A DNA stretch of 64,000 nt from a virus (IMGVR_UViG_3300022917_000008:32001-96000); one strand, 5' to 3'; positions 41,701 to 56,857 are shown, counted from the stretch's first letter. Translations and numbers: made by a program. Notes: generated by a model from the letters alone, not told the origin.

Positions 41701-43009
41701 GGCTAACCACATCTCATTCCACACCTTCAATTGCTCCATGTGTGTACTATTGGCTGGTAATGACTTGTACTTCATATGATTGAGGTTTAATTGGTTAAGT
41801 GGTTGTACTGTTGGGGCTCATGCCTCTGGCATTTCGCCTGTTAGTCAGGTATCTGTTTCAAATGGCCTGTTCCTTGTGGATACTCATCAGCCAGCTCACT
41901 GAGTGATGTACCTAATAGTCTTATTAATTGACTATCTGAACCATTTATCACCTCTGTTATGTTGGACACAATGGCCTCAGCTAGTGTAGTATTAAATCCT
42001 TTTGATACTAGTATTCTGATTAGGTCAATATCTGCTTGTGTGGCCATAGAACTGAGTATTTAGTTATGTGATCAATTAGTATGAGGAATATGATGAAGTA
42101 CGGATGACTTGTAGATGTGATGTGGTGTTGATGCAGATCAAATAAACACTCATAATCAATGAGTTATACATCAGATGACTGTGTTTCACGTGGAACATAG
42201 CACAATAATCATAAGAGCTTGGTATATTTTCTCTCTGAGTTGTGAGATAAGAGAAAAATTACACCAAGAAATAGGGTCAATGACCTATTCTGTGATGTAA
42301 TTAACTAACATTCAGTGATACACTGAGAATACGAGACCAGAATTGGCCTTAGTTGTTAGACTGCTAAGGCAAACAATGCAGTGCCTTGAGGCATTAGCCT
42401 GATCATGTTGGCTGTCTTACTGTCAACCCCTTCGAATTCCAGGCTTGACATGTTCAGGAACTCACCACTCTTGGAAGGTGTGAGAACTGCCTTGGCAATG
42501 ACTGGCTTTCCAACAGGAATGTGAGTTGGAATGTTAGTGATTGCGCTCTCCAAAGGGAAGAATGTACCAAGGTCAGTGACTACAATCTTAGTCTTCCTGC
42601 CATCAGTGGTGCTCTTCCAGCCTCCAATGGATAATACCTGAATCTCAACAGTCTCAGACTTGGAATTCTTGCTTGCTTCGAGGTTCTTAGCAATGAGTTG
42701 CTCTACAAGGCTAAGTGGTTTTGCTGCTGGTGTGTTGTTCTGTTCCATGATAAATGAAATTTAGATGTAAATAAAGTGATTCCAAACACCACATGGGATT
42801 TGATCTCACAGTATAGGGGGTACCCCCAACTCCAGATTCTGCATGGGGTTGGTGATGGGGAAGGTACTTACATCTCTACGTACTATAAACTTGGTACCAT
42901 ACAGGTACTTACACTCGTGTATACCAATTAGAACAAGGGTGGGGGTATCTTATATACAACCAAACATAGGGGGTTATTTATTTGGAAGTACCAACTAGGG
43001 GGTGTATAT

Positions 43010-44077
43010 TTGTGTATAAACAAATCAACAAGTATGAACAACCCAAATGACACATTAGAGTCTGCAGCTATTGACCAGATAAAAGGGGCAAACCAAAAGG
43101 CCTTAGCAGGTAAGGTAGTAGACAGTGAACAGCCAGTAACTCCACAGAAGCCTATGTCAATAGAGCAGTACACACAGGCACTAAAGAAGGAGCATGAGGT
43201 AGCCAGGCTTAGGGCAGGCATAGCAAAGTTCATGTTTGAAGAGAACATGGCTATGGTACAACTCAATCAGCTAAGGGCTGGACAACACATGGTGCAGCAA
43301 GCACAGATGCCTGATAATCAACCAACTGAGGAAATCCCACAAACTGAAGACAATGGAGATCAAGGATAATCAATACAAGGAAGCACCATCAGGTCCTCCT
43401 GTGTTTCTAGCCCCAGCTGATGCTCCTGACAGGGATGCATTAGAGGCTTATAGGCATGGGTTAATGGAGAGGGTATGTAACCTTGATCCTGAGATTGGAC
43501 TGACTATTAGGAAGGACCTAATAGAGTTTGATGAGCAGCAGACAGCAGTATGGAGCTTGGATAGGATTCAGGATCAGCCTACTGATTGTTTGAGGGATTT
43601 GATAGTGAGGGTAGAGAACACAGAAGACATTCTTAAGGAAGACCCAAGACTACTGTAATGGAGCATTTACATGAACCTGAGATAGACCCTCTGGATATAG
43701 ATAGGCCTGGATACTATACACCCAGGATAGAAGAATTATTCTTCAGTTGTGAAGTAGATGTGTATGAAGGAGACAAGTGGATGTCCTATATCATAGATGA
43801 GGAGTTTGATCTGAACAACATATCAAGCTTTAGTCTAAGGATGAAATACTTACAGGCTAAGGATGTGATGGAACTAGGGTTTGCAAGAGTAATGCCTAAC
43901 ACTCCTATGTATCAAAGAGGGTCTTACACTATTACTACATACAGGCTACTTGATCCAACTTATAGCAGAGTGAAGATCAGTCAGAATGGTGTGACAGTGT
44001 TTGAGGGTCATGTGAAGAACAAGTCAGAGTTAAGAAGGATTCTGATACTTAATGAAATAAATTTTGCTGATAACTAA
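43010..44077 (+). other. Three hypothetical genes opening the plus-strand block (43010-43369, 43353-43658, 43658-44077)
   Basis: Overlapping ORFs downstream of TATATTTG near 43005. Confidence 0.7.
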
Positions 44078-44093
44078 GGAAGGAGTATATTTG
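44063..44093 (+). promoter_or_regulatory. Bacteroidota-type promoter for leader 1
   Basis: TTTG (44063) N19 TATATTTG (44086); ATG 3 nt later, so probably leaderless. Similar elements at 44806-44836, 50897-50928, 52742-52773 and 53850-53881. Confidence 0.75.
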
Positions 44094-44096
44094 GGT

Positions 44097-44192
44097 ATGC
44101 AACAACATGCAATAGATATGGCCAATAGAGAGATCAGGGTGAAGAAAAGCTCTGAGGGTATGCTATTTGCTAGACTAGATTACACAAGTTAA
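44097..44192 (+). CDS. Leader peptide 1 (MQQHAIDMANREIRVKKSSEGMLFARLDYTS), putative attenuator
   Basis: Translated by hand; codons 5-17 encode only amino acids of the downstream tRNA block; carries antiterminator 44149-44160. Confidence 0.8.
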   Translation: MQQHAIDMANREIRVKKSSEGMLFARLDYTS

Positions 44193-44215
44193 CAGGTTCC
44201 TAAGCAATAAGACTA

Positions 44216-44255
44216 CCCCCAGAGCAGCCAAAAGCTACCTGGGGGTTTTTGTTTT
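44216..44255 (+). terminator. Intrinsic terminator of attenuator 1
   Basis: CCCCCAG...CTGGGGG then TTTTTGTTTT, immediately before tRNA-Lys. Confidence 0.85.
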
Positions 44256-44257
44256 AT

Positions 44258-44329
44258 CCCCTTGTAGCAAACAGGTGTAGGCAAGAGTCTTTTAAACTCT
44301 GGGGTTTGGTTCAATTCCAAACAGGGGGA
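44258..44329 (+). tRNA. tRNA-Lys (TTT)
   Basis: AGAGT-CTTTTAA-ACTCT; terminal stem CCCCTTG/CAGGGGG. Confidence 0.85.
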
Positions 44330-44332
44330 CAA

Positions 44333-44405
44333 GCTGTTATAACTCAACAGGTAGAGTAATTGATTCTTAATCAATGAGTTCTAGGTTCGAGCCCTAGTAG
44401 CAGCA
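44333..44405 (+). tRNA. tRNA-Lys (CTT)
   Basis: ATTGA-TTCTTAA-TCAAT; GCTGTTA/TAGCAGC. Confidence 0.9.
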
Positions 44406-44406
44406 C

Positions 44407-44580
44407 ATGATAACAATACACACAGGAGCAGGTGGTATGGAGCTATTCCAAGAAATGATGGATAGGGAACTTGGATATGAAAGAGTATATCTTAGGAAGG
44501 TGCCAAGAATACTAAAGTCTAAGTTCAAAAAGAGTCCCTACACAGGGAAGTACTATAAAAGGATAAAGATGCCCCTTTAG
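44407..44580 (+). CDS. Small hypothetical protein (MITIHTGAGGMELFQEMM...)
   Basis: 57-aa ORF whose TAG stop lies inside tRNA-Val. Confidence 0.55.
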   Translation: MITIHTGAGGMELFQEMMDRELGYERVYLRKVPRILKSKFKKSPYTGKYYKRIKMPL

Positions 44581-44642
44581 CTCATTGGTAGAGCTTGTCC
44601 CTTACATGGATAGAGTAGGGAGTTCGATTCTCTCAGGGGGTA
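44571..44642 (+). tRNA. tRNA-Val (TAC)
   Basis: TGTCC-CTTACAT-GGATA; GCCCCTT/AGGGGGT. Confidence 0.85.
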
Positions 44643-44647
44643 CTAAT

Positions 44648-44719
44648 GCACCTGTAGCTCAATGGTAGAGCTGCAAACTTCTAATTTGCAGGCTGGAAGT
44701 TCGACCCTTCCCAGGTGTT
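44648..44719 (+). tRNA. tRNA-Arg (TCT)
   Basis: GCAAA-CTTCTAA-TTTGC; GCACCTG/CAGGTGT. Confidence 0.9.
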
Positions 44720-44725
44720 CTATAA

Positions 44726-44798
44726 GGCCAGTTAGCTCAGTGATAGTAGCAAGAAGCTGTTAACTTCTAGGTCCTAGGTTTGATCCCTAGACTGGCCT
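44726..44798 (+). tRNA. tRNA-Asn (GTT)
   Basis: AGAAG-CTGTTAA-CTTCT; GGCCAGT/ACTGGCC. Confidence 0.9.
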
Positions 44799-44840
44799 CA
44801 GATATTTTGTTCTTTGGAATAAACTTCATACATTTGTATT

Positions 44841-45230
44841 GTGACACAAAGAGAACAAACAATAGCAACCAAGTTCCTATATTTGATAGGAGTAACTAAG
44901 GGGCAGATATTTGCCAAGTGTAAGAACTGGCAGTCAGCTAGAACAACCATAAGGAGACATGCTGTGAAGATATATGAGACCTCAGGGAAGCCAAAAGCAT
45001 GTAACTCTTGTGGATATGATAAGCATTATGAAATATGTCACATAAGGGCTGTGTCTGACTTTCCAGATGAAGCCTTAGTTGAAGAGATAAATAGTATAGA
45101 CAACCTGATGGCACTATGTCCAAACTGTCATTGGGAGTTTGACAATTTAGATTGTGGGGTGGATGTAACGGTAACACAAGACTCTCATAAGGTCTTAATT
45201 GACAGTTCGATTCTGTCCCCCGCAACGTAA
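44841..45230 (+). CDS. HNH endonuclease, 3' end overlapping a tRNA
   Basis: CNSCG...EICHI...NSIDNLMALCPNCHWEFD. Confidence 0.85.
   Translation: MTQREQTIATKFLYLIGVTKGQIFAKCKNWQSARTTIRRHAVKIYETSGKPKACNSCGYDKHYEICHIRAVSDFPDEALVEEINSIDNLMALCPNCHWEFDNLDCGVDVTVTQDSHKVLIDSSILSPAT
45153..45225 (+). tRNA. tRNA with CAT anticodon (Met-like)
   Basis: AGACT-CTCATAA-GGTCT; TGTGGGG/CCCCGCA. Confidence 0.8.
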
Positions 45231-45327
45231 CACAACAAAACTTGGAGCACAAGTATCTACTCATAAAAGGAGTGCTTAGGGCATAGGCTGGTGACTTCAG
45301 TAATAACCCTTCCAGTGAGAGTAGATT

Positions 45328-45399
45328 AGTACTATCGTCTAGTGGCTAGGACATTGCACTTTCACTGCAATAAAGGGGGATCGAAACCCCCTAGTACTA
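45328..45399 (+). tRNA. tRNA-Glu (TTC)
   Basis: TTGCA-CTTTCAC-TGCAA; AGTACTA/TAGTACT. Confidence 0.9.
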
Positions 45400-45406
45400 C
45401 AACCAT

Positions 45407-45483
45407 AGCCTCAGGGGCTGCTAGAAGTGGCCACTCCCCTGTCACGGGAGAATATCAGGAGGGTTTGAATCCCTTTGGGGCTG
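45407..45483 (+). tRNA. tRNA-Asp (GTC)
   Basis: CTCCC-CTGTCAC-GGGAG; AGCCTCA/TGGGGCT. Confidence 0.85.
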
Positions 45484-45484
45484 C

Positions 45485-45616
45485 ATGAAAGAGACATTCA
45501 ACAGGATATGGAATGATCCAGTGGGATCAGATATCATAGCTGGACTGATAGTGTTAGTAATAGCATTTGTACTATCCAGAGTATTCAACATCAAGATTCC
45601 TCATTTTGACCCTTAG
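45485..45616 (+). CDS. Small single-TM protein
   Basis: MKETFNRIWNDPVGSDIIAGLIVLVIAFVLSRVF...; TAG stop inside the next tRNA. Confidence 0.55.
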   Translation: MKETFNRIWNDPVGSDIIAGLIVLVIAFVLSRVFNIKIPHFDP

Positions 45617-45679
45617 CTCAATAGGTAGAGCAGGATACTCATAATATCAAGGTAGTGGGTTCAAATCCCTCAGGGTCAA
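45607..45679 (+). tRNA. tRNA with CAT anticodon (Met, or Ile2 if lysidine-modified)
   Basis: GATA-CTCATAA-TATC; TGACCCT/AGGGTCA. Confidence 0.8.
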
Positions 45680-45691
45680 CAAACTAACATT

Positions 45692-46471
45692 ATGTTCTAC
45701 GTATTGCAAGAGAATGTTTTCAAGGAGTCCCATCATGAACTAATAATGAACTGGATGGAAAAGGCTGGAATAGAGCATGAAGTAATCAAGTTCAGACCTT
45801 TCACAGACACATTAGAAGTAGAGACTAAGAGGAAGGACATATGGTTATGGGGATCAGTTAGTGCATCCAGGATAGCTGAGAAGTACGGATGGTCTCCTGG
45901 TAGTATGTACAATGACAATCATGACCTTGAGGTCTACTCCAAGTACTATGGTGAGAACATGCTAAACCATGATGGTGTGGTAATGAGAGTTACTGATCCA
46001 CTCCCAGATGGTTTAGTCTCATTCTTTGCTAGACCAACTAAGGATACTAAGGCATTCACAGGACAGGTCTTTGATGCTAAGGAATGGAATGAATGGGTAG
46101 ATGATATGACTAGGGCAGGCTTAGTTAGAAGCTTCAGTAAGGATACTAAGGTACTACTAGCGCCTCTCAAGTTGATACAGCAAGAGGTAAGGTGCTGGGT
46201 GATAGGAGGTAAAGTAGTGTCTGCAAGTAGATATAAGATGCATGACAGGATACAATACCAGAACTATGATGATGAGACTTTCTACACTGACTTTGCCCAG
46301 AAGATGGCAGACATTTATTGTCCAGCAGAAGCCTTTGTGATAGATGTATGTTTGGCTGAGGGAGAACTTAAAGTGGTAGAAATCAACTGCATAAACTGTT
46401 CTGGTTTCTATCATATGAACGTAGATAAAGTAATGAGTGCTCTTGAGACTCATTTTGGCAATGTCACATAG
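45692..46471 (+). CDS. ATP-grasp domain protein (DUF4343-like)
   Basis: FARPTKDTKAFTGQV, EVRCWVIGGKVV, FVIDV, VVEINCINCSGFY. Confidence 0.8.
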   Translation: MFYVLQENVFKESHHELIMNWMEKAGIEHEVIKFRPFTDTLEVETKRKDIWLWGSVSASRIAEKYGWSPGSMYNDNHDLEVYSKYYGENMLNHDGVVMRVTDPLPDGLVSFFARPTKDTKAFTGQVFDAKEWNEWVDDMTRAGLVRSFSKDTKVLLAPLKLIQQEVRCWVIGGKVVSASRYKMHDRIQYQNYDDETFYTDFAQKMADIYCPAEAFVIDVCLAEGELKVVEINCINCSGFYHMNVDKVMSALETHFGNVT

Positions 46472-46533
46472 CTCAATGGTTGAGCACCAATCTGATAAGT
46501 TGGGGGATGTAGGTTCAAATCCTACTGTGACAA
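46462..46533 (+). tRNA. tRNA-Ile (GAT)
   Basis: CCAAT-CTGATAA-GTTGG; TGTCACA/TGTGACA. Confidence 0.9.
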
Positions 46534-46536
46534 CTA

Positions 46537-47074
46537 TGAAACAAGAAATACTAGATGCAGGATGGAAGTACTATCAGAGCCCATATCTAGCTGAGAAGTA
46601 CAGAGAGGGGGTATATGAAAAGGGCAACTACTGGATGAAGATAAATGAAGATAGCAGAGACATAACAGTGATTGCACAAGACCCAGTAAAGCTACTAGAT
46701 GAGGGATGGGTATACCCAGAGAATTTTAAACTCTGTGTTCCTTATAAAGGGCCCAAAACACTAGAAGGCTTGGATAAACTACTAGATTTATGATGCTCCA
46801 ATTGAACCCTATACTACCAGTTTTCGTTCCTAGGTTCAACATAGAGGGATTTGCCTTTCTTGTAACTAGGGAATCACAAGAGCATTATACAATCTTCACT
46901 GTGGCCTTAGACAATGGTGAGATATGGGACCTAAGTAACAGGGAGGTAAGGTTTTGTGTTAATCACACTATGGACAGATCATTTATTAACAAGGGGGACA
47001 CAATATTCAAAGATGCTTTTAGACCACATAACAGGGCTGTTCCTGATGATAAAACACAGGAGAAGGGTAGTTAG
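46537..47074 (+). other. Two small hypothetical genes (46537-46793, 46790-47074)
   Basis: MKQEILDAGW... and MMLQLNPILPVF... joined by an ATGA overlap. Confidence 0.6.
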
Positions 47075-47176
47075 GTTCAAGGTACCCAGGGCTAAGGTAA
47101 TGCAGGTATACAGGTTCTCTAGGCCCAATGCCAAGGCTTTGTACTTAGGGCTGGGCAGGTTCATCTTTATCAACTA

Positions 47177-47246
47177 GGGCTAGATGCCAATGGCAGGTCA
47201 ACTCCCTTGCAAGGAGATTGTTTGGGTTCGACTCCCACTATGTCCA
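47177..47246 (+). tRNA. tRNA-Ala (TGC), irregular acceptor stem
   Basis: CTCC-CTTGCAA-GGAG; G3-U70 present; TGGG-TTCGACT-CCCA. Confidence 0.75.
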
Positions 47247-47302
47247 CTAATTTAATCCCAAGTATGGAGTTAATTTTGTATCTTTATTTGTAAAGATATA
47301 CT

Positions 47303-48673
47303 ATGGCTACTGCAACAATAAATTGGGTACCCACCAATGGAAGTGGGTATGAAATATGGTATGGTAAGCTAACTATGGTTGGCACTACTTTCTTACCTCC
47401 TTCTACAGGCTGGATACAAGCTCCTGGTTCACCTTTTGATTCTACTCTGGGTACAGCTACTATCAATGGACTGGATGACAACACTCAGTACAGGATAGTA
47501 ACTAGGGCTGACTGTACATCTGCTGACAGTCCATGGATTGATAAGAGTGTGGACAAGATAGTCTGCCCTACTTTCACTGTAGTAGCTAATCCAGTAGGTG
47601 GAACAGATGTGGGAGCTTCAATCACAGCAAACATTAGCCTGTCTAATATTGTTGAATTTGGATTGATAGTCTCCTCAGTTACTCTCACTGTCAAGAAGAC
47701 AAGTGATTCTTCAGTAGCAGCAACTAAGGTATTCTCTGCTCCATATACAGACACTACTCTCACTAACACATTCACATCTTTACTTACTAATACCAGTTAC
47801 ACAGTATATCTGACTTTGCATGATAGTGTGAATTCAGTGGATGTTACATGCACAAATCATGCTGTAACAACACTTGCATTCATACCACCTCCTACATGTA
47901 CAGCTCCAACATTCTCTATTAGCAATATCACACAATCTTCTGCCTTAGTTACAATAACATCAACTCTTCTAACTGGGGACACATATGATATTTCTATCAA
48001 TGGTGGATCATCCTATGTCTATACAGGACTAACTGGGGCAACATTCAGTCTTACAGGACTAACCCAGGGCACTAATTATGTAGTTGTGGTAAGGAGGAAC
48101 TGTGCAGCTGGTAATCAAGGCATTAGCACAAGTCAGACATTCACTACTGCAAGTAACATCATACCAGCAACTATACAAGCTAATAGGAGTAATGGACAGA
48201 TCAATACTGGTGGTGGACCAAGGTGGCAGTATTCAATGGTAATAACATTCCAACAACCTACACCATTCCCCATTACTATTTACTTTGGTCAGTCTGTGAT
48301 TGTAGGACAAGTAGGTGGAGGACAGTGTAGGTACAGTCAGGGATATGATATGTATACACCTCCAACTACAGGACCAATAGCTTGTTGTTTTGGTGGATGT
48401 ACATATCCAGCTCCAAACTCTAACAAGCCTTGGAGGATAGATGTACCTGCAGGTGTGGTCACATATACAGTACCATTTGACACTGCATTCAGAGATGGGG
48501 TCACTCATGCTGACTTGCAACAAGTGTGGTGTGTACAGGAGCCTGTGGGCACAGGTGCAGTGGATTACATTAGTGATTTGTGGATGAAGATTACTGCTCC
48601 TTCAGGATATTTCTGTAACTTCACTCCTGTACCTGGAGCACATACATCAGGGATAACAATACACAATCTATAA
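47303..48673 (+). CDS. Thr-rich protein with fibronectin type III-like repeats (possible virion decoration/adhesion)
   Basis: GLDDNTQY, SLLTNTSY and GLTQGTNY FN3 signatures. Confidence 0.75.
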   Translation: MATATINWVPTNGSGYEIWYGKLTMVGTTFLPPSTGWIQAPGSPFDSTLGTATINGLDDNTQYRIVTRADCTSADSPWIDKSVDKIVCPTFTVVANPVGGTDVGASITANISLSNIVEFGLIVSSVTLTVKKTSDSSVAATKVFSAPYTDTTLTNTFTSLLTNTSYTVYLTLHDSVNSVDVTCTNHAVTTLAFIPPPTCTAPTFSISNITQSSALVTITSTLLTGDTYDISINGGSSYVYTGLTGATFSLTGLTQGTNYVVVVRRNCAAGNQGISTSQTFTTASNIIPATIQANRSNGQINTGGGPRWQYSMVITFQQPTPFPITIYFGQSVIVGQVGGGQCRYSQGYDMYTPPTTGPIACCFGGCTYPAPNSNKPWRIDVPAGVVTYTVPFDTAFRDGVTHADLQQVWCVQEPVGTGAVDYISDLWMKITAPSGYFCNFTPVPGAHTSGITIHNL

Positions 48674-48674
48674 T

Positions 48675-49652
48675 ATGAGTTTGATTAAGGATTTCTGCAA
48701 ATGGTTCAATGGGGAAGAGGATGTTGACAATACCCTCTATGTGATTACAGTGGTATTCAATCCTTTCAATTTCAAGTCCAGGTACAAGTTGTACAGGGAG
48801 TTCAGGGAGTACATGTCTACACAGAAGAATGTGAGGCTTCTAACAGTAGAAGTAGCACTAGGGGATAGGCCATTTAGAGTAACTAGGGCCAATAACTCTT
48901 GGAATGTGCAACTAAGGACTGAGGAAGAGATGTGGCACAAGGAGGCAGCTATTAATAGAGGGTTCAAACATCTATTACACTTGGTACCTAATGCCAAGTA
49001 TGTTGGATGGTTTGATTCTGATGTTAGGTTTGCTAATCCAGACTGGGTTAAGGAGACTATTCATGCCCTACACAGGTACAAGATAGTCCAGCCCTTCTCA
49101 CAAGTTGTATACATGGATGCAAAGTATGAAGAGTTGTGGCATACACCAAGTGCACTGAAACACTACCATAACAAATTAGGATACTATCAATATCCCCAAG
49201 TACCTCCTGGGTATCTATGTGGAGGACATCCAGGGTTAGCTTGGGCTGCAAGAGTAGATACTTTCAGGAAACTAGGAGGACTAATGGACTTCTGTATAGC
49301 AGGATCAGCAGACACACACATGCTGAATGCACTACTGGGAGATGTCAACATATTCTACAAACCTGGTATGACACAGGTGTTCAGGACTGAGCTTAAGAAG
49401 TGGCAGGACAAAGCAGATGAGCATGTTAAACAAAATATAGGCTACGTCAATGGAATCTGCTATCATTACTGGCATGGGAAGAGTGAGAAAAGGGGATATG
49501 AGAAGAGGTGGGACATAATGAACTTTCATCAATTTGACCCTTCTACTGACATTGTGAGGGGTCATAATGGACTATGGAAGTGGGCTGGAAACAAGCCCCA
49601 GTTAGTCTATGATCTAAGGAAATCAATGTCAGAAAGGAATGAAGATGAGTAA
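48675..49652 (+). CDS. Glycosyltransferase-like protein (GT-A)
   Basis: WHKEAAIN.G, WFDSDV (DxD), GHPGLAWA, HYWHG. Confidence 0.7.
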   Translation: MSLIKDFCKWFNGEEDVDNTLYVITVVFNPFNFKSRYKLYREFREYMSTQKNVRLLTVEVALGDRPFRVTRANNSWNVQLRTEEEMWHKEAAINRGFKHLLHLVPNAKYVGWFDSDVRFANPDWVKETIHALHRYKIVQPFSQVVYMDAKYEELWHTPSALKHYHNKLGYYQYPQVPPGYLCGGHPGLAWAARVDTFRKLGGLMDFCIAGSADTHMLNALLGDVNIFYKPGMTQVFRTELKKWQDKADEHVKQNIGYVNGICYHYWHGKSEKRGYEKRWDIMNFHQFDPSTDIVRGHNGLWKWAGNKPQLVYDLRKSMSERNEDE

Positions 49653-50184
49653 TACACTGATAACACAGGACAGGTTAACAACTTTCTCCTTGCTAAGGCC
49701 CCTAGTTCCTAAAGAAGGATTAGTAGCTGAGGTAGGAGTATATAAGGGAGGATCACTTAAAGTACTAGCTAAACTGTTTGATGACACAGCAGTACTAGGA
49801 TTTGATACATTTGAGGGGTTACCTAAGGAGCAATGGATTGAGAGTGAGATACATGAGCCTGGTGACTTTCATGATACTACAATGAAGGATGTGCAGGAAT
49901 TCTTGCATGATTGTCCAAACGTGGTACTGATCAAGGGACTATTCCCAACATCAGCTAAGGGAATGGATGATTACAAGTTCAGGCTAGTACATTTGGATAC
50001 AGACTTTTATCTGGGTACAAAGTTATCACTAGAGTGGTTTTGGCCAAGGATGGAAAGTGGAGGTATTATAGTGTTTGATGACTATAAGTGGCCCAATTGT
50101 CCAGGTGTAGAACAAGTACTGAAGGAGTTTGGAGAACCTGTGCACCAAGCAGCAGATTATCAGGCATACATAAAGAAACCATGA
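49639..50184 (+). CDS. TylF/MycF-like SAM-dependent O-methyltransferase
   Basis: AEVGVYKGGS, GFDTFEGLP, KGLF, VHLDTD.Y, GGIIVFDDY. Confidence 0.85.
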   Translation: MKMSNTLITQDRLTTFSLLRPLVPKEGLVAEVGVYKGGSLKVLAKLFDDTAVLGFDTFEGLPKEQWIESEIHEPGDFHDTTMKDVQEFLHDCPNVVLIKGLFPTSAKGMDDYKFRLVHLDTDFYLGTKLSLEWFWPRMESGGIIVFDDYKWPNCPGVEQVLKEFGEPVHQAADYQAYIKKP

Positions 50185-50912
50185 CATACATACAGAACAA
50201 GGACGGACTTATAGGAGACTTCCTGGGATCAGTACCTGCAATGCAGGAGCTAGGTAGAAGGGACAAGCTAGTGGTACAGATTCATCCAGAGGCATTGAAG
50301 TTAGTACCTCTTATATACAACCCAGATGGGATTGTATTTACTGAGATAGCAACTGGGCAAGTGTCACATACAATCTACTCAGCTACTGCATTCCAGATTG
50401 CAACAGCAAAGAATCTGTACATGTCACAAGCATTCTTTGAGCAGGTGGGATTGGAGATTCCCCTAGTTGCTCCTAAAGCTGATTTAAGGCTCATAGAGGT
50501 CCATACTCCAACTTATGACTACATCATATCACCTTTTGCTAGAAGCCTACCAAGCAGCCAGAAATTGCCTAAGAGTGAATGGAAGCAGTTGGTGGATAGC
50601 ATGCCTAACAAGAAGTTCTGTGTAATTGGTACAACAGTGCATGATGATCCTGAGTTCATAGTAGGACCTAATGTGGAGACTAGATTTGATATGGACTTCA
50701 ACTATGTAGGTAGCCTGCTAAGGAATGCAACTAAGGGACTCATCAGTGTTGTGACAGGCACTTCTCATTTAGCATTTCACCTAGGAGTGAAGAACTGGAT
50801 ACTTAATAATCAGGACTTTGCATGGGGTACTAATCCAGATGGAGTATCAATCAGGGATCATATTCCAGCTCTATTTGGAGAAAAGATTAGAGAATATTTG
50901 GAAAATAGCTAG
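50181..50912 (+). CDS. GT9-like (heptosyltransferase-like) glycosyltransferase
   Basis: IGDFLGSVPAMQEL, ISPFA, ISVVTGTSHLA; start moved to ATG 50181 (ATGA overlap). Confidence 0.7.
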   Translation: MTYIQNKDGLIGDFLGSVPAMQELGRRDKLVVQIHPEALKLVPLIYNPDGIVFTEIATGQVSHTIYSATAFQIATAKNLYMSQAFFEQVGLEIPLVAPKADLRLIEVHTPTYDYIISPFARSLPSSQKLPKSEWKQLVDSMPNKKFCVIGTTVHDDPEFIVGPNVETRFDMDFNYVGSLLRNATKGLISVVTGTSHLAFHLGVKNWILNNQDFAWGTNPDGVSIRDHIPALFGEKIREYLENS

Positions 50913-50936
50913 GACTGCACTATATTTGTATTACAT

Positions 50937-51115
50937 GCGGGGGATACTTAGAGAGCCCTGTTCTCTTATAACCCTTTAATACAGCCATAAAAGCTGTCCC
51001 CCGTTCCATGGAGAGGTGCTTCTAAGCTTTAGGTTGGTGTGATCCCAACTCTCTCTGCAAATGGGTAGAAATAGCATAGAGCTGTCAGTTGGGTGTAAGC
51101 CCCACCTACCCACCA
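50937..51115 (+). ncRNA. Three tandem truncated tRNA-like units
   Basis: 50937-51008 GCGGGGG/CCCCCGT-TCCA; 51010-51059 GGAGAG/CTCTCT with a GGTTGG/CCAACT hairpin; 51062-51115 TGGGTAG/CTACCCA-CCA. Confidence 0.6.
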
Positions 51116-51116
51116 T

Positions 51117-51189
51117 GCCTTCCTAGCTCAATTGATAGAGCGTCCATCTCTAAAATGGAAAGATGTGGGTTTGAGTCCCACGGATCGCA
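51117..51189 (+). tRNA. Amber suppressor-type tRNA (anticodon CTA)
   Basis: TCCAT-CTCTAAA-ATGGA; normal D arm and T stem; acceptor GCCTTCC/GGATCGC has two mismatches. Confidence 0.8.
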
Positions 51190-51204
51190 CTTAAACTAAA
51201 CACA

Positions 51205-51567
51205 ATGGCTTAGATTACATCAACATCCAGATTGATAACTATAGTAAGGAGAGACCTTAGTCATGGTTATCAGACAGCACAGACAGGTCATGCAATAGCA
51301 GAATGGGCTTATAACAATCCCAGGACCTTTAGAAGGTGGAGAAAAGAAAGTGGGTACTTAATATGTCTTTCAGTAAGAAACCTAGCAGAGCTAGAGGCAT
51401 TCAACAGAAAGTTATATGACAACAAGATAAAGTACACAGCATTTTATGAACCTGACATTGGAGAGTTTACAGCAATAGCAATAACTCCTTCAACTAAGGC
51501 AGACCAGTTAACTAAGCATCTACAGCTAGCCAATGTAAAGGCTGGCACTAAGGACAAACACAAATGA
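51205..51567 (+). CDS. Pth2-like peptidyl-tRNA hydrolase with in-frame TAG at codon 3
   Basis: IVRRDLSHG...AQTGHA and FYEPDIGEFTAIAI motifs; ATG-GCT-TAG at 51205 is in frame with the ORF called from TTG 51232. Confidence 0.75.
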
Positions 51568-51635
51568 AGCAATTATCCTCATATTATCTCCTAAGTTCCC
51601 TGTTGAATAGACAGGCTGAGATAGTATTGAGTTAA
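51564..51635 (+). CDS. Leader peptide 2 (MKQLSSYYLLSSLLNRQAEIVLS), putative attenuator
   Basis: Codons 4-14 are all Leu, Ser or Tyr; ATGA overlap with the Pth2 stop. Confidence 0.85.
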   Translation: MKQLSSYYLLSSLLNRQAEIVLS

Positions 51636-51660
51636 GTCATTCTTCGGAGACCCTTATACT

Positions 51661-51696
51661 AGCCCTCAGCCTAAAAACTGGGGGCTTTTTGTTTTT
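51661..51696 (+). terminator. Intrinsic terminator of attenuator 2
   Basis: AGCCCTCAG-CCTAAAAA-CTGGGGGCT then TTTTGTTTTT. Confidence 0.85.
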
Positions 51697-51698
51697 AT

Positions 51699-51774
51699 GG
51701 CAGTGTGGGCAAAATGGTAAAGTCGCTTCACTTAGGATGAAGAGGTTCTGAGAGTTCGAGTCTCTCCACTGTCA
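51699..51774 (+). tRNA. tRNA-Leu (TAG), short variable region
   Basis: CTTCA-CTTAGGA-TGAAG; GGCAGTG/CACTGTC. Confidence 0.85.
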
Positions 51775-51777
51775 CAT

Positions 51778-51857
51778 ACCTCCATGGTGAAATTGGTAGA
51801 CGCGACAGACTTAAAATCTGTTCCTTCGGGGTGCCAGTTCAAATCTGGCTGGGGGTA
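51778..51857 (+). tRNA. tRNA-Leu (TAA)
   Basis: ACAGA-CTTAAAA-TCTGT; variable arm CCTTCGGG. Confidence 0.9.
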
Positions 51858-51859
51858 CT

Positions 51860-52258
51860 ATGGATAATAAAACCTACTATAGCTCCATAGCGGAGCTAAA
51901 AGTAATGGCTGATCTAACAGCTAAGCACTATCATATATTCAATCAAGTATCTGGTAAGGCACCATTTGACTTGGTTGCATACAGGGATGGAGAGCTAAGG
52001 AGAGTCAGTGTCAAGAGTTGCAACAAAGACCCTAGGAAGGACGGGGGATTTGTGATAGAAGTTGGCAGGGTAAGAGCCAATAAAACAGAGAATAAGATAT
52101 ACAAGTTTGATCAGTCTGAATGTGATCTGCTGGCCATCTACATAGTCAAAGAAGATAGAATAGTCTATGTGGAGTCAACAGTAGCGCATGATAAAAGGCA
52201 GATCATCATACAAGGAAGGTCCCAGTTGACAGAGGTACATGATCTTGAAAATCACTAG
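51860..52258 (+). CDS. PD-(D/E)XK homing-endonuclease-like protein
   Basis: AELKV...PFDLV......RVSVKS and CDLLAIY; 3' end overlaps tRNA-Ser. Confidence 0.75.
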   Translation: MDNKTYYSSIAELKVMADLTAKHYHIFNQVSGKAPFDLVAYRDGELRRVSVKSCNKDPRKDGGFVIEVGRVRANKTENKIYKFDQSECDLLAIYIVKEDRIVYVESTVAHDKRQIIIQGRSQLTEVHDLENH

Positions 52259-52299
52259 GTCCCTAAAAAGACGTGGGGGTTGAACTCCCCCACCTTCCT
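52214..52299 (+). tRNA. tRNA-Ser (TGA), degenerate D arm
   Basis: TGAT-CTTGAAA-ATCA; long variable arm; GGAAGGT/ACCTTCC. Confidence 0.7.
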
Positions 52300-52307
52300 C
52301 AAACTAA

Positions 52308-52392
52308 GGAGAGTTGGCTGAGAGGCTTAAAGCACCACATTGCTAACGTGGGGGCTGTAATAGGTCCACTAGTTCGAATCTAGTACTCTCCT
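52308..52392 (+). tRNA. tRNA-Ser (GCT)
   Basis: CCAC-ATTGCTAAC-GTGG; GGAGAGT/ACTCTCC. Confidence 0.9.
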
Positions 52393-52398
52393 CTTAAT

Positions 52399-52482
52399 GC
52401 CTACCATGGTAGATTGGATACTACCTGTGGACTGTAAATCCACTGCCCTTGGGCTTATTCAGTTCGATTCTGAAGGGAGGCA
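52399..52482 (+). tRNA. tRNA-Tyr (GTA)
   Basis: GTGGA-CTGTAAA-TCCAC; variable arm GCCC-TT-GGGC. Confidence 0.85.
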
Positions 52483-52504
52483 CATTTTGTTGTATATTTG
52501 TATA

Positions 52505-52765
52505 ATGGAATACAACATCACACCTCAGGCCCTAGTTGATAGGGGATTCAAGTACCATGCACCAGGCATAAGTGGAGCAGACATGTGGCAGGGAATGCCA
52601 TGGTGGATTCATAAGGAGAAGGATATAGGTCTATGCCTTAGAGGGACTACTTCTACAGCAAAGCCTAGAGGACTAAGGTTAGCTGGACATTTCAATACAG
52701 AGGTGAGAACAATAAAGCAGTTAGAAGTTTTGATGGAAATATTTGGTTTGAATCCAAATAGTTAG
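52505..52765 (+). CDS. Hypothetical protein
   Basis: ATG 52505 (MEYNITPQ) follows TATATTTG; the track start lies inside tRNA-Tyr. Confidence 0.65.
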   Translation: MEYNITPQALVDRGFKYHAPGISGADMWQGMPWWIHKEKDIGLCLRGTTSTAKPRGLRLAGHFNTEVRTIKQLEVLMEIFGLNPNS

Positions 52766-52776
52766 TATATTTGATT

Positions 52777-52848
52777 ATGAAACAGACTTGGCAACATACC
52801 TTTACGACACAAACTCCACTAAAAGGAGAAGGGTATCTGTTGTCATAA
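52777..52848 (+). CDS. Leader peptide 3 (MKQTWQHTFTTQTPLKGEGYLLS), putative attenuator
   Basis: Codons 3-14 are all Gln, Thr, Trp, His, Phe or Pro; ATG 3 nt after TATATTTG. Confidence 0.85.
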   Translation: MKQTWQHTFTTQTPLKGEGYLLS

Positions 52849-52883
52849 CATTCCAAGAAAGATTGTAATAATGAAACACTGAT

Positions 52884-52913
52884 ACCCTCCATTCCTGGAG
52901 GGTTTTTTATTTT
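52884..52913 (+). terminator. Intrinsic terminator of attenuator 3
   Basis: ACCCTCCA-TTCC-TGGAGGGT then TTTTTATTTT. Confidence 0.85.
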
Positions 52914-52984
52914 GGGTGGTTGACCAATGGTAGGTCCCTACATTTGGGATGTAGAATTTGCAGGTTCGAGTCCTGTTCACCCAA
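52913..52984 (+). tRNA. tRNA-Pro (TGG)
   Basis: CTACA-TTTGGGA-TGTAG; TGGGTGG/TCACCCA. Confidence 0.9.
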
Positions 52985-52988
52985 CTAT

Positions 52989-53061
52989 GGTGCACAAGCT
53001 AATCTGGTGAAAGCACTAGACTGAAAATCTAGGGAGCTTGGATCAAAACCAAGGTGTACCG
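52989..53061 (+). tRNA. tRNA-Phe (GAA)
   Basis: CTAGA-CTGAAAA-TCTAG; GGTGCAC/GTGTACC. Confidence 0.9.
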
Positions 53062-53062
53062 C

Positions 53063-53494
53063 ATGAAACAATCAAATAGAAAGGATGCTAGAAGGGTCAT
53101 AGACTGTGAAAACTGTGGTAACCCAACAAAGAATGATAGATTCTGTAGTCTATCTTGCTCAGCAGAACATGTATCAAAGGAGCAGTATAGAAAGTTCTTG
53201 AGCAGCCCTGAGGACTTCCAGGGTGAGGAGTACTCTCCTAAGTCCTTTAAGAAGTTTATACTGAAGGAACAGGATTGCAAGTGTAGCATCTGTAGTATAG
53301 ACAATATATGGAATGGTAAGGAACTGGTGTTTGTACTAGATCACATAGATGGAAATCCAGGCAACAATACTAGGGACAACCTTAGGCTAGTATGTCCCAA
53401 TTGTGATAGCCAGTTGGACACATTTAAAAGTGGAAATAAGGGAAGTGGTAGGTACTACAGAACACAAAGAAGATTAGAGGGCAAATCCTCATAA
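53063..53494 (+). CDS. HNH endonuclease
   Basis: CENCG, FCSLSC, LDHIDGNPGNNTRDNLRLVCPNCDSQ. Confidence 0.9.
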   Translation: MKQSNRKDARRVIDCENCGNPTKNDRFCSLSCSAEHVSKEQYRKFLSSPEDFQGEEYSPKSFKKFILKEQDCKCSICSIDNIWNGKELVFVLDHIDGNPGNNTRDNLRLVCPNCDSQLDTFKSGNKGSGRYYRTQRRLEGKSS

Positions 53495-53567
53495 GGCCGG
53501 TTAGTTTATATGACTAAAATACGTCTCTTGTAAAGATGAGTACTGAGTTTGATGCTCAGACTGGCCT
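53495..53567 (+). tRNA. tRNA-Thr (TGT)
   Basis: CGTCT-CTTGTAA-AGATG; GGCCGGT/ACTGGCC. Confidence 0.85.
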
Positions 53568-53573
53568 CTTAAT

Positions 53574-53644
53574 AGCCCTTTAGCACATTGGTAGTGCGTG
53601 GAGCTTTGGACTCCATGAAGTTAGTTCGATCCTAGCAGGGGCTT
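53574..53644 (+). tRNA. tRNA-Gln (TTG)
   Basis: TGGAG-CTTTGGA-CTCCA; AGCCCTT/AGGGGCT. Confidence 0.85.
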
Positions 53645-53651
53645 CTTATAT

Positions 53652-53726
53652 GGTGCTTGTAGCATAAAGGTAATGCACTGCTCTGTGAAAGCAGTGAAGA
53701 GGGATCAATACCCTCCTTGTACCCCA
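53652..53726 (+). tRNA. tRNA-His (GTG)
   Basis: CTGCT-CTGTGAA-AGCAG; G-1/C73 and encoded CCA. Confidence 0.85.
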
Positions 53727-53729
53727 AAC

Positions 53730-53798
53730 ACGTGCTAGGCTATGGTAGCCACCCAGTCTCCAAAACTGAAGGAAGTAGTTCGATTCTACTAGTGCGTG
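53730..53798 (+). tRNA. tRNA-Trp (CCA)
   Basis: CAGT-CTCCAAA-ACTG; ACGTGCT/AGTGCGT. Confidence 0.85.
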
Positions 53799-53883
53799 CA
53801 ATAGAATAGTTTGATAAGCAAACCTATAAAGTTTGCATGTCAAACTATTTTTGTTTATATGAACTAAGACCCATATATTTGTA

Positions 53884-54246
53884 TTGAAGACCAACAATAT
53901 GAGTGTAGACTTAATCAAGGACAAGATAACAGTAAGTGATAAGACTGAGGCACTCAGGCTGCACCTACTTATTAAGTCCTTCCAGACAGGTCTAAACCTC
54001 TCAGAGTCAGACATTAACAGTCTGGTTGAGCTTAGCATAGTAGGGTATAACCCAGAGTTCTTCAAGGCTTGTGTAGACAAGGGCTATTACAAGAGTGAGC
54101 AGACTGTAAGGAATGCCATAGCCAAGATGACTAACATGGGGATACTGTACTACAGGAAGAGAGGGGAAAGGAAGATCAATGAGGACTTCCTACCTAAAAC
54201 AAGTTCAGACAAGGTAATGTTTCAATACTTAGTGGGTAACATATGA
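53884..54246 (+). CDS. Possible winged-helix DNA-binding protein
   Basis: SEQTVRNAIAKMTNMGIL helix-wing pattern. Confidence 0.55.
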   Translation: MKTNNMSVDLIKDKITVSDKTEALRLHLLIKSFQTGLNLSESDINSLVELSIVGYNPEFFKACVDKGYYKSEQTVRNAIAKMTNMGILYYRKRGERKINEDFLPKTSSDKVMFQYLVGNI

Positions 54247-54581
54247 TAGTAAGGGCATCTGAAATATATACTGTAACAGCACTAAGGCATGGATTGGACC
54301 AAGAACTTGTTTCCTCAGTTGGTGAGACAGTGTTCAAGTCCTTGATGGAAAAGATGGTAGTACCTCATGACCTAGCTTATGAGTTGGATCATGTGGGGAC
54401 ATTTGCTATTAGACACAAGAAGTTCTTGGGTAAGCATGCAACCCTTTTGAGTAATAACCCTGACCATCCCTTTGTGTCAACATGGAGGCATGTTATAGAC
54501 ATGGTACAGGACTTCAGAAACACTAAGGCACAATTTCAATCTAGGAGGGCAGAATATGACAGAGCCAAAAAACAAGGCTAA
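54243..54581 (+). CDS. HU/IHF-like DNA-binding protein
   Basis: Helix-helix start followed by YELDHVGTFAIR. Confidence 0.55.
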   Translation: MIVRASEIYTVTALRHGLDQELVSSVGETVFKSLMEKMVVPHDLAYELDHVGTFAIRHKKFLGKHATLLSNNPDHPFVSTWRHVIDMVQDFRNTKAQFQSRRAEYDRAKKQG

Positions 54582-54873
54582 GATCAGCCTTAAGAATATA
54601 GGTAGGTTCTTGCAGGGATACTCCAGGATGTTCTCAGAGACCTTTGGCTTGCTTGAAAAGCACAAACAGGAGCAAGTTATATGGAGATCAGAACAGGCCA
54701 AGGAATGCCTTAAAAATGGCTCCTGCTTGTATTGTGGATGTGACACCCCAGCTAAATTTTATGGAGATGAAGCATGTGAGGACCCTCAAAGGCAATGTTA
54801 CCCTAGTATGATGGATGTACCAACTTGGGAACAGTATAAGGCAGAACATCAAATAACCATTAAAGTAGACTAA
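54556..54873 (+). CDS. Cys-rich hypothetical protein
   Basis: C....SCLYCGC.......C......CYP.MM...WEQYK. Confidence 0.7.
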   Translation: MTEPKNKAKISLKNIGRFLQGYSRMFSETFGLLEKHKQEQVIWRSEQAKECLKNGSCLYCGCDTPAKFYGDEACEDPQRQCYPSMMDVPTWEQYKAEHQITIKVD

Positions 54874-55181
54874 TGGGACAAGAAGTAACAATAAGCCCTA
54901 GTAGGATGGACTTGGGCAAGATAGATAACAAACCCAGAAAGTTCTGGTTTGAAGTCAGGAATAACCACCATGCAACTCTTGACTTAGCAGCTTGGGCCTC
55001 TTGTGGCTGTACTACACCAATAGTAGTCCCTAGTAGGGTTGAACCTGGGCAGACAGCACAACTGAGGGTAGAATTTGATCCCACTGGTAAAAGTGGCCTC
55101 CAGGAGAAGGGAGTGGGAGTAACTTATGTTATAGAGGGCCATCAGAAGAACACAGGAGCAACCTTTGTTGCAAACATCTAA
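54873..55181 (+). CDS. DUF1573-like Ig-fold protein
   Basis: ASCGCTTP....VEPGQT..LRVEFD..GKSG. Confidence 0.8.
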   Translation: MGQEVTISPSRMDLGKIDNKPRKFWFEVRNNHHATLDLAAWASCGCTTPIVVPSRVEPGQTAQLRVEFDPTGKSGLQEKGVGVTYVIEGHQKNTGATFVANI

Positions 55182-55192
55182 AACAAAATACT

Positions 55193-55492
55193 ATGAGTTT
55201 CCACAATCACACACATGAAGAGGGTCATCTATGTGATGACTGCAAGGCAGAATTGAAAGAGGACATTCACCTTATGATCACTATCCTACACTCTCCAGCA
55301 GGGGAATCTACTAGGGACTTGGCTGATAGCCTACTATACAGCTTCCTTATGGAGCTATATGGGGTATGTGACTGTGAGGACCCTGATGAGGATGATGATG
55401 AACAGTCAGATAATGATAGCCCTGTACAAGGTCCTATAATTGGGAACTTGAGGGAGTTCCTCACAGCTATGGGTACACAGCACCACACCTAA
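55193..55492 (+). CDS. His/Cys/acid-rich hypothetical protein
   Basis: HNHTHEEGHLCDDC...CDCEDPDEDDDE. Confidence 0.6.
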   Translation: MSFHNHTHEEGHLCDDCKAELKEDIHLMITILHSPAGESTRDLADSLLYSFLMELYGVCDCEDPDEDDDEQSDNDSPVQGPIIGNLREFLTAMGTQHHT

Positions 55493-55522
55493 TTATCATG
55501 TTGGGGGCCAGTCTAGTCAGGA

Positions 55523-55984
55523 ATGGAAAAGTATTGTCCTAAATGCAAGCAGAAGAAAGACACATCCTTCTTCAGACCTAACAAATCTAGGAAGGATGGT
55601 CTTCAACCTTGCTGCATAGATTGTGATAAGGAATATCAAAGGCAATGGTACCAGAGCAACAAGGAAAAGGTAAAAGCTAAGTCCTTAGTAAGCAATAAGG
55701 TAAATAGAGAAAGAGTACAAGAGATTCTACTAAGGGAACTAGAAGGTAAGAAATGTGAACACTGTGGGGAAGGTGATATACTAGTACTAGAGTTTGACCA
55801 CCTAAGAGACAAGCAGTTCACCATAGGCAATACACAGTGGGAGAGCGAAGACAAAATAATAGAGGAGGTAGGAAAGTGCCAAGTACTATGTGCCAACTGC
55901 CATAGAAGGAAAACTCATGAAGATATGAACACATACAAATGGAGGTATAGCCAAGGGGTAAGGCAGGAGTCTGCAAAACTCTGA
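55523..55984 (+). CDS. HNH endonuclease, 3' end overlapping tRNA-Cys
   Basis: CPKC, CIDC, CEHCG..LEFDHL..KCQVLCANCHRRKT. Confidence 0.85.
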   Translation: MEKYCPKCKQKKDTSFFRPNKSRKDGLQPCCIDCDKEYQRQWYQSNKEKVKAKSLVSNKVNRERVQEILLRELEGKKCEHCGEGDILVLEFDHLRDKQFTIGNTQWESEDKIIEEVGKCQVLCANCHRRKTHEDMNTYKWRYSQGVRQESAKL

Positions 55985-56014
55985 GCGAAGGTTCAATTCC
56001 TTCTACCTCTTCCA
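55941..56014 (+). tRNA. tRNA-Cys (GCA)
   Basis: GGAGT-CTGCAAA-ACTCT; U73 and encoded CCA. Confidence 0.9.
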
Positions 56015-56047
56015 GAAATCCAACAAACCTTAAATAAACCAACACTA

Positions 56048-56120
56048 GCATCAGTAGTATAAAGGCTGATTATACTGCACTTCCAATGCAGGGATGAGGT
56101 TTCGATTACCTCCTGGTGCT
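56048..56120 (+). tRNA. tRNA-Gly (TCC)
   Basis: CTGCA-CTTCCAA-TGCAG; GCATCAG/CTGGTGC; U73. Confidence 0.9.
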
Positions 56121-56137
56121 CAAAAAGAAACCAACTA

Positions 56138-56857
56138 ATGAAGTTTATTGAAAGTACACACAAGTACATTGACGAGGAAGAGAAAGAATATGCCCCAGTT
56201 ACATCTCTACTGAAGAGTTTTCAGGAGAAGGTGGATTGGGATGCAGTAGCAACCAAGAAAGCTAAGAAGGATGGCACAACTAAGGAGGCCTTACTTGCTC
56301 AATGGGCAGACAAGAGAGATAGGGCAGCAGAGAGGGGTACAGCTTACCATAAGCAGAAGGAAGAGGAGTTACTAGGCTATCCCAATGTTGTTGGATACCA
56401 TACAGATCATAGTGGGATTAAGTCTGATGCTGACATGAAGTTAGAGGAAGGCCTGATCTATGTGGAGAAGATGATATGGTCCAAGAAGTATAAGGTGTGT
56501 GGTACAGCAGACTTGGTTGAAGTAGTCAATGGAAAGATCAATATTAAAGACTACAAGACAAATGAAAAGTTGGATTTCGAGTCATGGAAACACCCAAGAA
56601 ATGGATCAAAAAGGCTCCTCTATCCAGTTCAACACCTGGATGACTGCAATTTCAACCTATACCAGCTTCAGGTTAACTGCTATATGTATATGCTACTCCA
56701 GCACAATAGGCACCTTAAGATGGGAGAGATGGAAATCCTCCACGTAGTGTTTGATGAGAACAAGCAGCACAAGGAAACAAGAGTATACCCAGCTATGAAC
56801 TTCCAGAGAGATGTGAAGAACATGTTGGAACAACATCTAAAAACCAGGCATGCTTAG
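56138..56857 (+). CDS. PD-(D/E)XK exonuclease-like protein
   Basis: RGTAYH, CGTADLV, IKDYKTN, YQLQVNCY. Confidence 0.85.
   Translation: MKFIESTHKYIDEEEKEYAPVTSLLKSFQEKVDWDAVATKKAKKDGTTKEALLAQWADKRDRAAERGTAYHKQKEEELLGYPNVVGYHTDHSGIKSDADMKLEEGLIYVEKMIWSKKYKVCGTADLVEVVNGKINIKDYKTNEKLDFESWKHPRNGSKRLLYPVQHLDDCNFNLYQLQVNCYMYMLLQHNRHLKMGEMEILHVVFDENKQHKETRVYPAMNFQRDVKNMLEQHLKTRHA

Follow-up and report, generated by a model that had tools for sequence, protein, structure and literature searches.

A candidate leader-peptide attenuator whose codons match the six tRNA genes that follow it in a crAss-like phage

Within the tRNA island of an uncultured crAss-like phage of 156 kb, we identified a short reading frame whose codons name exactly the amino acids of the six tRNA genes behind it, followed by an intrinsic terminator whose 5' arm can alternatively pair upstream. 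Judging from its modelled folds and its codon content, this element (attenuator 3) is in our view likely to be a ribosome-mediated leader-peptide transcription attenuator of the trp/his type that gates the six phage tRNA genes. The parts, their mutually exclusive pairings and the agreement between codons and tRNAs were observed directly in the window, the whole 64,000-nucleotide stretch that we analysed (bases 32001-96000 of the single 155,657-bp genome IMGVR_UViG_3300022917_000008), and two sister elements with the same design occur further upstream in the same island. Coordinates are those of the window unless stated otherwise.

The large terminase (TerL) and portal proteins of the phage match crAss-like PHROG families, and TerL shares no more than 30% identity with those of known Crassvirales, Flavobacterium and Azobacteroides phages. 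The genome encodes a tmRNA along with about 27 tRNAs; the tRNA island lies upstream of the terminase gene, and all four-codon boxes of the phage are served by a single U34 tRNA. The genome is extremely poor in CpG (498 occurrences in 155,657 bp, observed/expected 0.073), and TpG and CpA are each over-represented about 1.3-fold across it. ACG makes up 40 of the 3083 Thr codons genome-wide (1.3%). CGN codons, for which the phage encodes no tRNA-Arg, are nearly absent, at 68 of about 1,840 Arg codons. Genes resembling HNH or PD-(D/E)XK endonucleases are scattered among the tRNAs (53063-53494, 51860-52258, 44841-45150 and 55523-55984), and some of them overlap tRNA ends. One such overlap involves the 3' end of a PD-(D/E)XK endonuclease ORF and a probable second Ser tRNA with anticodon TGA and a long variable arm (~52213-52299), which has a weak Rfam match to the tRNA-Sec model (24.6 bits, E = 0.14) and whose presence would explain why leader 2 contains TCC and TCA codons.

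The features of attenuator 3, of the unit that it precedes and of the two sister leaders are listed in Table 1.

Table 1 Features of the candidate attenuator, its downstream tRNA unit and the sister leaders, in window coordinates.
Feature	Position	Strand	Basis
Bacteroidota-type sigma-A promoter	52742-52773	+	Pattern search
Leader ORF, 23 codons, MKQTWQHTFTTQTPLKGEGYLLS, stop TAA	52777-52848	+	Sequence reading
Sensor core, 12 codons, Q T W Q H T F T T Q T P	52783-52818	+	Six-frame run search and random partitions
Region 1, TGG CAA CAT ACC TTT, 5' arm of the 1:2 anti-antiterminator hairpin	52789-52803	+	MFE fold
Region 2, last codons of the leader ORF; pairs with region 1 (52829-45) or region 3 (52830-46)	52829-52846	+	Predicted folds
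Region 3, antiterminator 3' arm (ATGA, AACA, GATACCCT), overlapping the terminator 5' arm	52871-52888	+	Folds and shuffles
Intrinsic terminator 3:4, 8-bp stem ACCCTCCA/TGGAGGGT, loop TTCC, U-tract TTTTTTATTTT	52884-52912	+	Fold
tRNA-Pro (UGG)	52913-52985	+	ARAGORN; Rfam 55.1 bits
tRNA-Phe (GAA), unusual T-loop	52989-53061	+	Rfam tRNA 51.5 bits; missed by ARAGORN
HNH endonuclease gene between tRNAs	53063-53494	+	Pfam HNH_3 E = 3.6e-5, just under the curated cut-off
tRNA-Thr (UGU), tRNA-Gln (UUG), tRNA-His (GUG), tRNA-Trp (CCA)	53495-53799	+	ARAGORN; Rfam
End-of-unit terminator, long AT-rich hairpin then TTTTTGTTT	53804-53857	+	Fold
Leader 1 ORF, MQQH-AIDMANREIRVKK-..., before Lys, Lys, Val, Arg, Asn, Met, Glu, Asp, Met, Ile, Ala	44097-44192 (element 44097-44256)		
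Leader 2 ORF, MKQ-LSSYYLLSSLL-..., before Leu, Leu, Ser, Ser, Tyr	51564-51635 (element 51564-51697)		

We compared the amino acids of each leader with those of the tRNA genes behind it. Codons 3-14 of leader 3 (CAG ACT TGG CAA CAT ACC TTT ACG ACA CAA ACT CCA) draw on P, F, T, Q, H and W, the amino acids carried by the six tRNAs behind the leader, leaving none of them out and adding no other, and this core is the longest run of those six in any of the six frames of the 155,657-bp genome. Random partitioning of the 20 amino acids yielded an equally good match for leader 3 alone in 53 of 1,000,000 partitions. When the three leaders were set against the three tRNA blocks, the resulting matrix was diagonal, with 13, 11 and 12 on the diagonal and at most 4 off it, and none of 1,000,000 random partitions reproduced all three matches; leader 2 is itself the longest {L,S,Y} run in the genome across all six frames. 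At leader 3 the correspondence between codons and tRNAs far exceeds chance, and it is seen at all three sites. Apart from promoter and terminator features, the leaders share no alignable sequence with one another, so recent duplication is not supported. Within the core of leader 3, composition (T5, Q3 and one each of P, F, H and W) roughly tracks the amino-acid usage of the phage (T 7.1%, Q 4.2%, P 4.1%, F 4.0%, H 1.9%, W 1.4%). The second-longest run of the same six amino acids in the genome, FTWTQQHTPT (3321-3350, - strand), also includes all six; it lies in frame within a 347-aa ORF (2403-3446), about 0.2 such runs are expected by chance, and it is probably a coincidence.

The tRNA genes form a unit that is bounded on both sides. 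The U-tract of the 3:4 hairpin extends to the first base of tRNA-Pro with a gap of 0-1 nt; there is no space for a promoter between the two, and the downstream genes consequently depend on read-through. Because a second, strong terminator bounds the unit (hairpin of -22.6 kcal/mol, z = -5.3; none of 200 shuffled sequences reached this stability), exactly six tRNAs lie within it, those for P, F, T, Q, H and W. The next promoter (53850-53881) follows tRNA-Trp, and its -33 region is overlapped by the end-of-unit hairpin. The anticodon loop of tRNA-Phe, read from the sequence, is CT-GAA-AA. Its T-loop lacks the usual TTCGA, which is perhaps part of the CpG avoidance of the phage. The HNH gene 3' of tRNA-Phe begins with MKQ and has a weak DNA match to an HNH gene of a crAss-like phage.

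Attenuator 3 has a promoter of its own, with a -33 TTTG (52742-52745), a 20-nt spacer and the -7 box TATATTTG (52766-52773), placed complete between the stop codon of the upstream ORF (52505-52765) and the leader ORF. The pattern TTTG, 17-23 nt, TAnnTTTG matched six times in the window where 2.1 matches were expected, and all six lie between 42981 and 53881 on the + strand. Genome-wide, five of the seven full TTTG-N17-23-TATATTTG promoters cluster in the tRNA island (42981-53881, + strand), and at several promoters of the island the start codon lies 3-4 nt past the -7 box, which suggests leaderless mRNAs. The ATG of leader 3 at 52777 is 3 nt past the box, a spacing that is identical at attenuator 1. 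As the flavobacterial -7 box has been placed at -12 to -5 (PMC9723704), this spacing predicts a start at the A or the T of the ATG (52777-52778). It is thus plausible, from the position of the -7 box, that the leader 3 mRNA is leaderless or nearly so. A start at the T would give a transcript with no translatable leader, in which case transcripts arriving from upstream could still carry the leader ORF. Leader 2 has no promoter of its own and overlaps, through ATGA, the stop codon of the preceding Pth2-like gene, so the leaders are evidently readable on longer transcripts too.

The RNA of attenuator 3 was predicted to adopt two exclusive sets of pairings. Folding of the full RNA (52777-52912) gave a minimum free energy structure consisting of 1:2 and 3:4 (-32.6 kcal/mol, z = -2.7), in which the GC-rich terminator stem spans 52884-52903. 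Removal of the terminator 3' arm led instead to 2:3 pairing (-20.8 kcal/mol), which sequesters the terminator 5' arm. The 2:3 helix joins AGGGTATC (52830-52837) to GATACCCT (52881-52888) and is extended by TGTT (52838-41) with AACA (52875-78) and by TCAT (52843-46) with ATGA (52871-74). To mimic a ribosome on the leader, the RNA was masked up to and including the A-site codon and the 12 nt that follow it. Naked RNA formed all 8 of the 8 terminator base pairs; with the A site on core codons 1-10 the terminator had 0 bp and its 5' arm was paired upstream, on codons 11-12 it was half-disrupted, and with the ribosome at the stop codon it again formed 8 of 8 bp. Attenuators 1 and 2 behaved like attenuator 3 in these simulations.

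Mononucleotide shuffles (n = 400) were used as controls for the pairings. Shuffling region 2 and the spacer of attenuator 3 displaced the terminator as in the native RNA in 3 of 400 cases, and the corresponding figure was 1 of 400 for attenuator 1 and likewise 1 of 400 for attenuator 2. The antiterminator pairing of attenuator 3 is not a chance feature. The 1:2 helix is weakly beyond chance, in that 40 of 400 shuffles of region 1 restored the terminator equally well. Attenuator 3 combines four properties of ribosome-mediated attenuators, namely a short ORF with related codons, a terminator between it and the regulated genes, an exclusive 2:3 pairing and a 1:2 pairing that bears the codons. None of the Rfam leader families (Trp, His, Thr, Leu and Phe leaders) matched at its gathering threshold; the sole leader match was to Phe_leader, at 24.5 bits against a gathering score of 55 (E = 0.78), and covered the terminator part only. 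A preliminary description of this DNA had named the element an attenuator, with a promoter of the form TTTG-N20-box, a core holding all four Thr and both Gln codons, and the AGGGTATC/GATACCCT pairing with its two extensions. The promoter and the core are present as it described them, every one of the pairings appears in the predicted fold of 52777-52890, and the term attenuator is strongly supported by the structure, the fold simulations and the exact match of core codons to the six tRNAs.

Because the core spells exactly the amino acids of the six tRNAs, the set is probably made when ribosomes read the core slowly. We infer from this arrangement the start site, the translation of the leader ORF, the efficiency of termination and the response to slow decoding. 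Host RNA polymerase would start at the Bacteroidota-type promoter and transcribe the leaderless or nearly leaderless 23-codon ORF. If the core were read fast, the ribosome would reach the stop codon and cover region 2, the 3:4 terminator would form, and transcription would end 0-1 nt before tRNA-Pro. If a matching charged tRNA were scarce, the ribosome would stall on any of the core codons and hold region 1, leaving 2:3 to block the terminator, and polymerase would then read through Pro, Phe, the HNH gene, Thr, Gln, His and Trp up to the terminator at ~53804-53857. RNase P would be expected to cut off the attenuator as the 5' leader of pre-tRNA-Pro. The outcome would be a feedback loop in which slow decoding, as might follow depletion or cleavage of host tRNAs in the course of infection, turns on production of the tRNA set, and restored supply turns it off.

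A secondary claim concerns the choice among synonymous codons. The preliminary description had held that ACG is kept, in a CpG-poor genome, by selection to sample host isoacceptors. The premise of CpG scarcity was borne out, and the diversity of codons lent the proposal some weight, but the presence of ACG did not stand out and the sampling proved unsystematic. More distinct codons were used over the three leader cores than expected (p = 0.003 when genome usage is the reference, p = 0.04 when usage is taken as uniform), all four Thr codons occur in the five draws of leader 3 (p = 0.019 against genome codon usage), each amino acid used twice in leader 1 has two different codons, and the five Leu of leader 2 have five. 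At least one ACG in five Thr draws had p = 0.063 against genome codon usage. The 171 nt of the element hold one CpG, for a genome-wide expectation of about 0.55, and the CpG of ACG is not unusual in itself at the dinucleotide level. Among the four-codon boxes, the pyrimidine-ending codons in the leaders include ACT, ACC, TCC, CTC and GCC; given that the phage serves these boxes with a single U34 tRNA, these codons would interrogate decoding beyond the standard wobble of the phage tRNAs, which is compatible with sensing of host isoacceptors without proving it. That the synonymous codons of the leaders, ACG included, were deliberately diversified to sample host isoacceptors is plausible but, with modest and post hoc statistics in its favour, in our judgement less likely than not.

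We place even weight on ACG being either a chance survivor or a slow codon that sets basal read-through, both of which are compatible with the attenuator model. In the second case, the tRNA reading ACG would be either the phage tRNA-Thr(UGU), through wobble, or a rare host tRNA-Thr(CGU). This variant fits as well as isoacceptor sampling does, as a stall at ACG would cover region 1 and leave region 2 free, and in the simulation with ACG in the A site all of the exposed RNA, which begins at 52819, was folded as the antiterminator. The p value for ACG taken alone and a CpG count at the genome average are in keeping with chance or slow decoding, as is the sampling of Pro, His and Phe by one codon each with no other NCG or CGN codon in the three leaders. 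Since ACG hardly occurs in phage genes, there would be little call for the phage to monitor this codon, and sensing it would not directly benefit phage translation. Against this explanation stand the codon diversity of the three cores, which exceeds both the genome and the uniform expectation, and the consideration that a neutral, unpaired ACG should decay to ACA under strong CpG loss; since the codon falls within the loop of the 1:2 hairpin, where it is unpaired, its presence is not accounted for by RNA structure. A broader reading, speculative and in our judgement unlikely, would make the leaders checklists, with each tRNA block turned on when any one cognate decoding activity runs short (for instance through host anticodon nucleases or host shut-off), the synonymous codons including ACG interrogating every isoacceptor of a box, and the single U34 phage tRNA serving as the universal replacement.

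Three other explanations for the element as a whole were weighed against attenuation by specific codons. One is that it senses general translation status, such as ribosome availability or the coupling of ribosome and polymerase, with core composition secondary. In the simulations, any slowing of the ribosome over 52783-52818 gave the antiterminator whatever its cause, as such a sensor would predict. General sensing nevertheless leaves unexplained the diagonal matrix of leaders and blocks, which no random partition reproduced, and the fact that the runs are the longest in the genome, and we judge it improbable. We give even less credence to an ordinary leaky terminator of transcripts from the upstream ORF (52505-52765), with a short ORF present by chance and the tRNAs supplied by constitutive leak-through. 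Terminators after upstream genes are common, the leader ORF is short and no homologue of it is known, and the tRNA island of crAss001 works without leaders; a leaky terminator would nonetheless not call for a full promoter between the upstream stop codon and the leader ORF, for an antiterminator pairing seen in so few shuffles, or for a match of codons to tRNAs far beyond chance at three sites. Scarcely credible is a ribosome-independent, T-box-like RNA that senses tRNAs by codon-anticodon pairing, or a 23-residue peptide with a function of its own, since, for all that the core codons are complementary to the anticodons of the downstream tRNAs, no T-box or other riboswitch matched in Rfam even at E <= 1 in 51000-56200, the twelve codons share one frame that opens with an ATG 3 nt from the -7 box and ends in a stop, the stop and region 2 are placed as in classical attenuators, and a peptide acting in its own right should not reflect the tRNA set.

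We also searched for relatives of the phage and of its leaders. An alignment search with Pth2 in JGI metagenomes recovered a strain, L002, that is 97-99% identical; its attenuator 1 is identical, and its contig ends before attenuators 2 and 3. L002 is without a 780-nt gene of the phrog_7313 family (45692-46471) between tRNA-Met and tRNA-Ile, an indel polymorphism inside a tRNA block (window 45682-46461 versus L002 3426-3484). A second locus from the JGI metagenomes, found with the same alignment, is distant and has a suppressor tRNA only. In IMG/VR, a single TerL query returned only a 6-kb piece of the same phage, a TerL alignment returned 80 loci (35-45% identity), which had few tRNAs and lacked leaders of this kind, and a Pth2 alignment had no match. 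The TerL alignment found nothing above 41% identity in GTDB genome contigs, and GenBank phages included no TerL relative above 30%. Closer relatives were found as proteins from Logan, ENA or NCBI assemblies (TerL 55-80% and Pth2 67-77% identical). Degenerate back-translation of the leader 3 core had 0 matches in IMG/VR, and of the 119 loci with the generic pattern of a -7 box plus ATGAARCAR, 0 adjoined a tRNA. The cultured crAss-like Bacteroides phage crAss001, whose TerL is less than 30% identical to that of the phage studied here, carries 23 tRNAs in a syntenic island ahead of its terminase gene (L218 900-5900), in which no codon-matched leader ORFs or terminators precede the tRNA sub-blocks. 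The leader design is consequently not general in the order.

How phages regulate their tRNA genes, and why they carry them, is to our knowledge essentially unknown. Debate has centred on whether phage tRNAs compensate for codon usage or replace tRNAs that are destroyed by host defences or lost in shut-off. If the leaders in front of the tRNA blocks work as proposed, the phage would measure the decoding speed of exactly those codons for which it can supply tRNAs on demand, and the sensor codons would tell which tRNA shortages it expects, making the debate testable. Classical attenuation would then gain tRNA genes as a new target, together with a new phylum context (Bacteroidota-type promoter, apparently leaderless mRNA) and a compact format that covers several amino acids, and a leader of this format could serve as a natural reporter of tRNA supply. 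Attenuator 3 would thus apply a known leader-peptide mechanism to phage tRNA genes; a literature search found no published account of leader-peptide attenuation of tRNA genes. The tRNA-Phe genes pheV and pheU of E. coli were considered as a precedent and rejected, as they have plain promoters and no leader ORF.

With regard to gene content, the T4 tRNA region with segB is a phage tRNA cluster with an interspersed homing endonuclease (PMC2330249). Like the T4 and crAss001 clusters, the island studied here groups its tRNAs ahead of the structural genes and has HNH and PD-(D/E)XK endonuclease genes interspersed among them. We know of no leader ORF or attenuator described for either of those two clusters.

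The closest systems are the multivalent leader-peptide attenuators of enterobacteria and the pheST leader. Enterobacterial leaders include trpL, hisL, pheL and leuL, and some of them sense more than one amino acid, as the ilvGMEDA leader does for Ile, Leu and Val and the thr leader for Thr and Ile. Attenuator 3 shares with them a short ORF rich in regulatory codons, exclusive 1:2, 2:3 and 3:4 pairings, a terminator before the regulated genes, the assignment of a stalled ribosome to the antiterminator and of a ribosome at the stop codon to the terminator, and the use of more than one amino acid per leader. It differs in that it would regulate tRNAs rather than biosynthetic enzymes, lists six amino acids, mostly once each, where enterobacterial leaders have long runs of a single codon, apparently has a leaderless mRNA with a Bacteroidota-type promoter, and shows no sequence or covariance-model similarity to any Rfam leader family. 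Its U-tract, unlike theirs, abuts the first tRNA, so that the attenuator doubles as the 5' leader of a pre-tRNA. The E. coli pheST leader (pheM) is a leader-peptide attenuator of an aminoacyl-tRNA synthetase operon that responds to the supply of charged tRNA; like attenuator 3 it acts on a component of the translation machinery, but it controls a synthetase rather than tRNA genes and senses a single amino acid. In the T-box of Firmicutes, uncharged tRNA is bound without any ribosome, by direct contact with a specifier codon and the conserved T-box sequence. The T-box brings about tRNA-dependent antitermination upstream of translation-related genes, as attenuator 3 would, but in attenuator 3 a reading frame and its stop codon are integral to the element.
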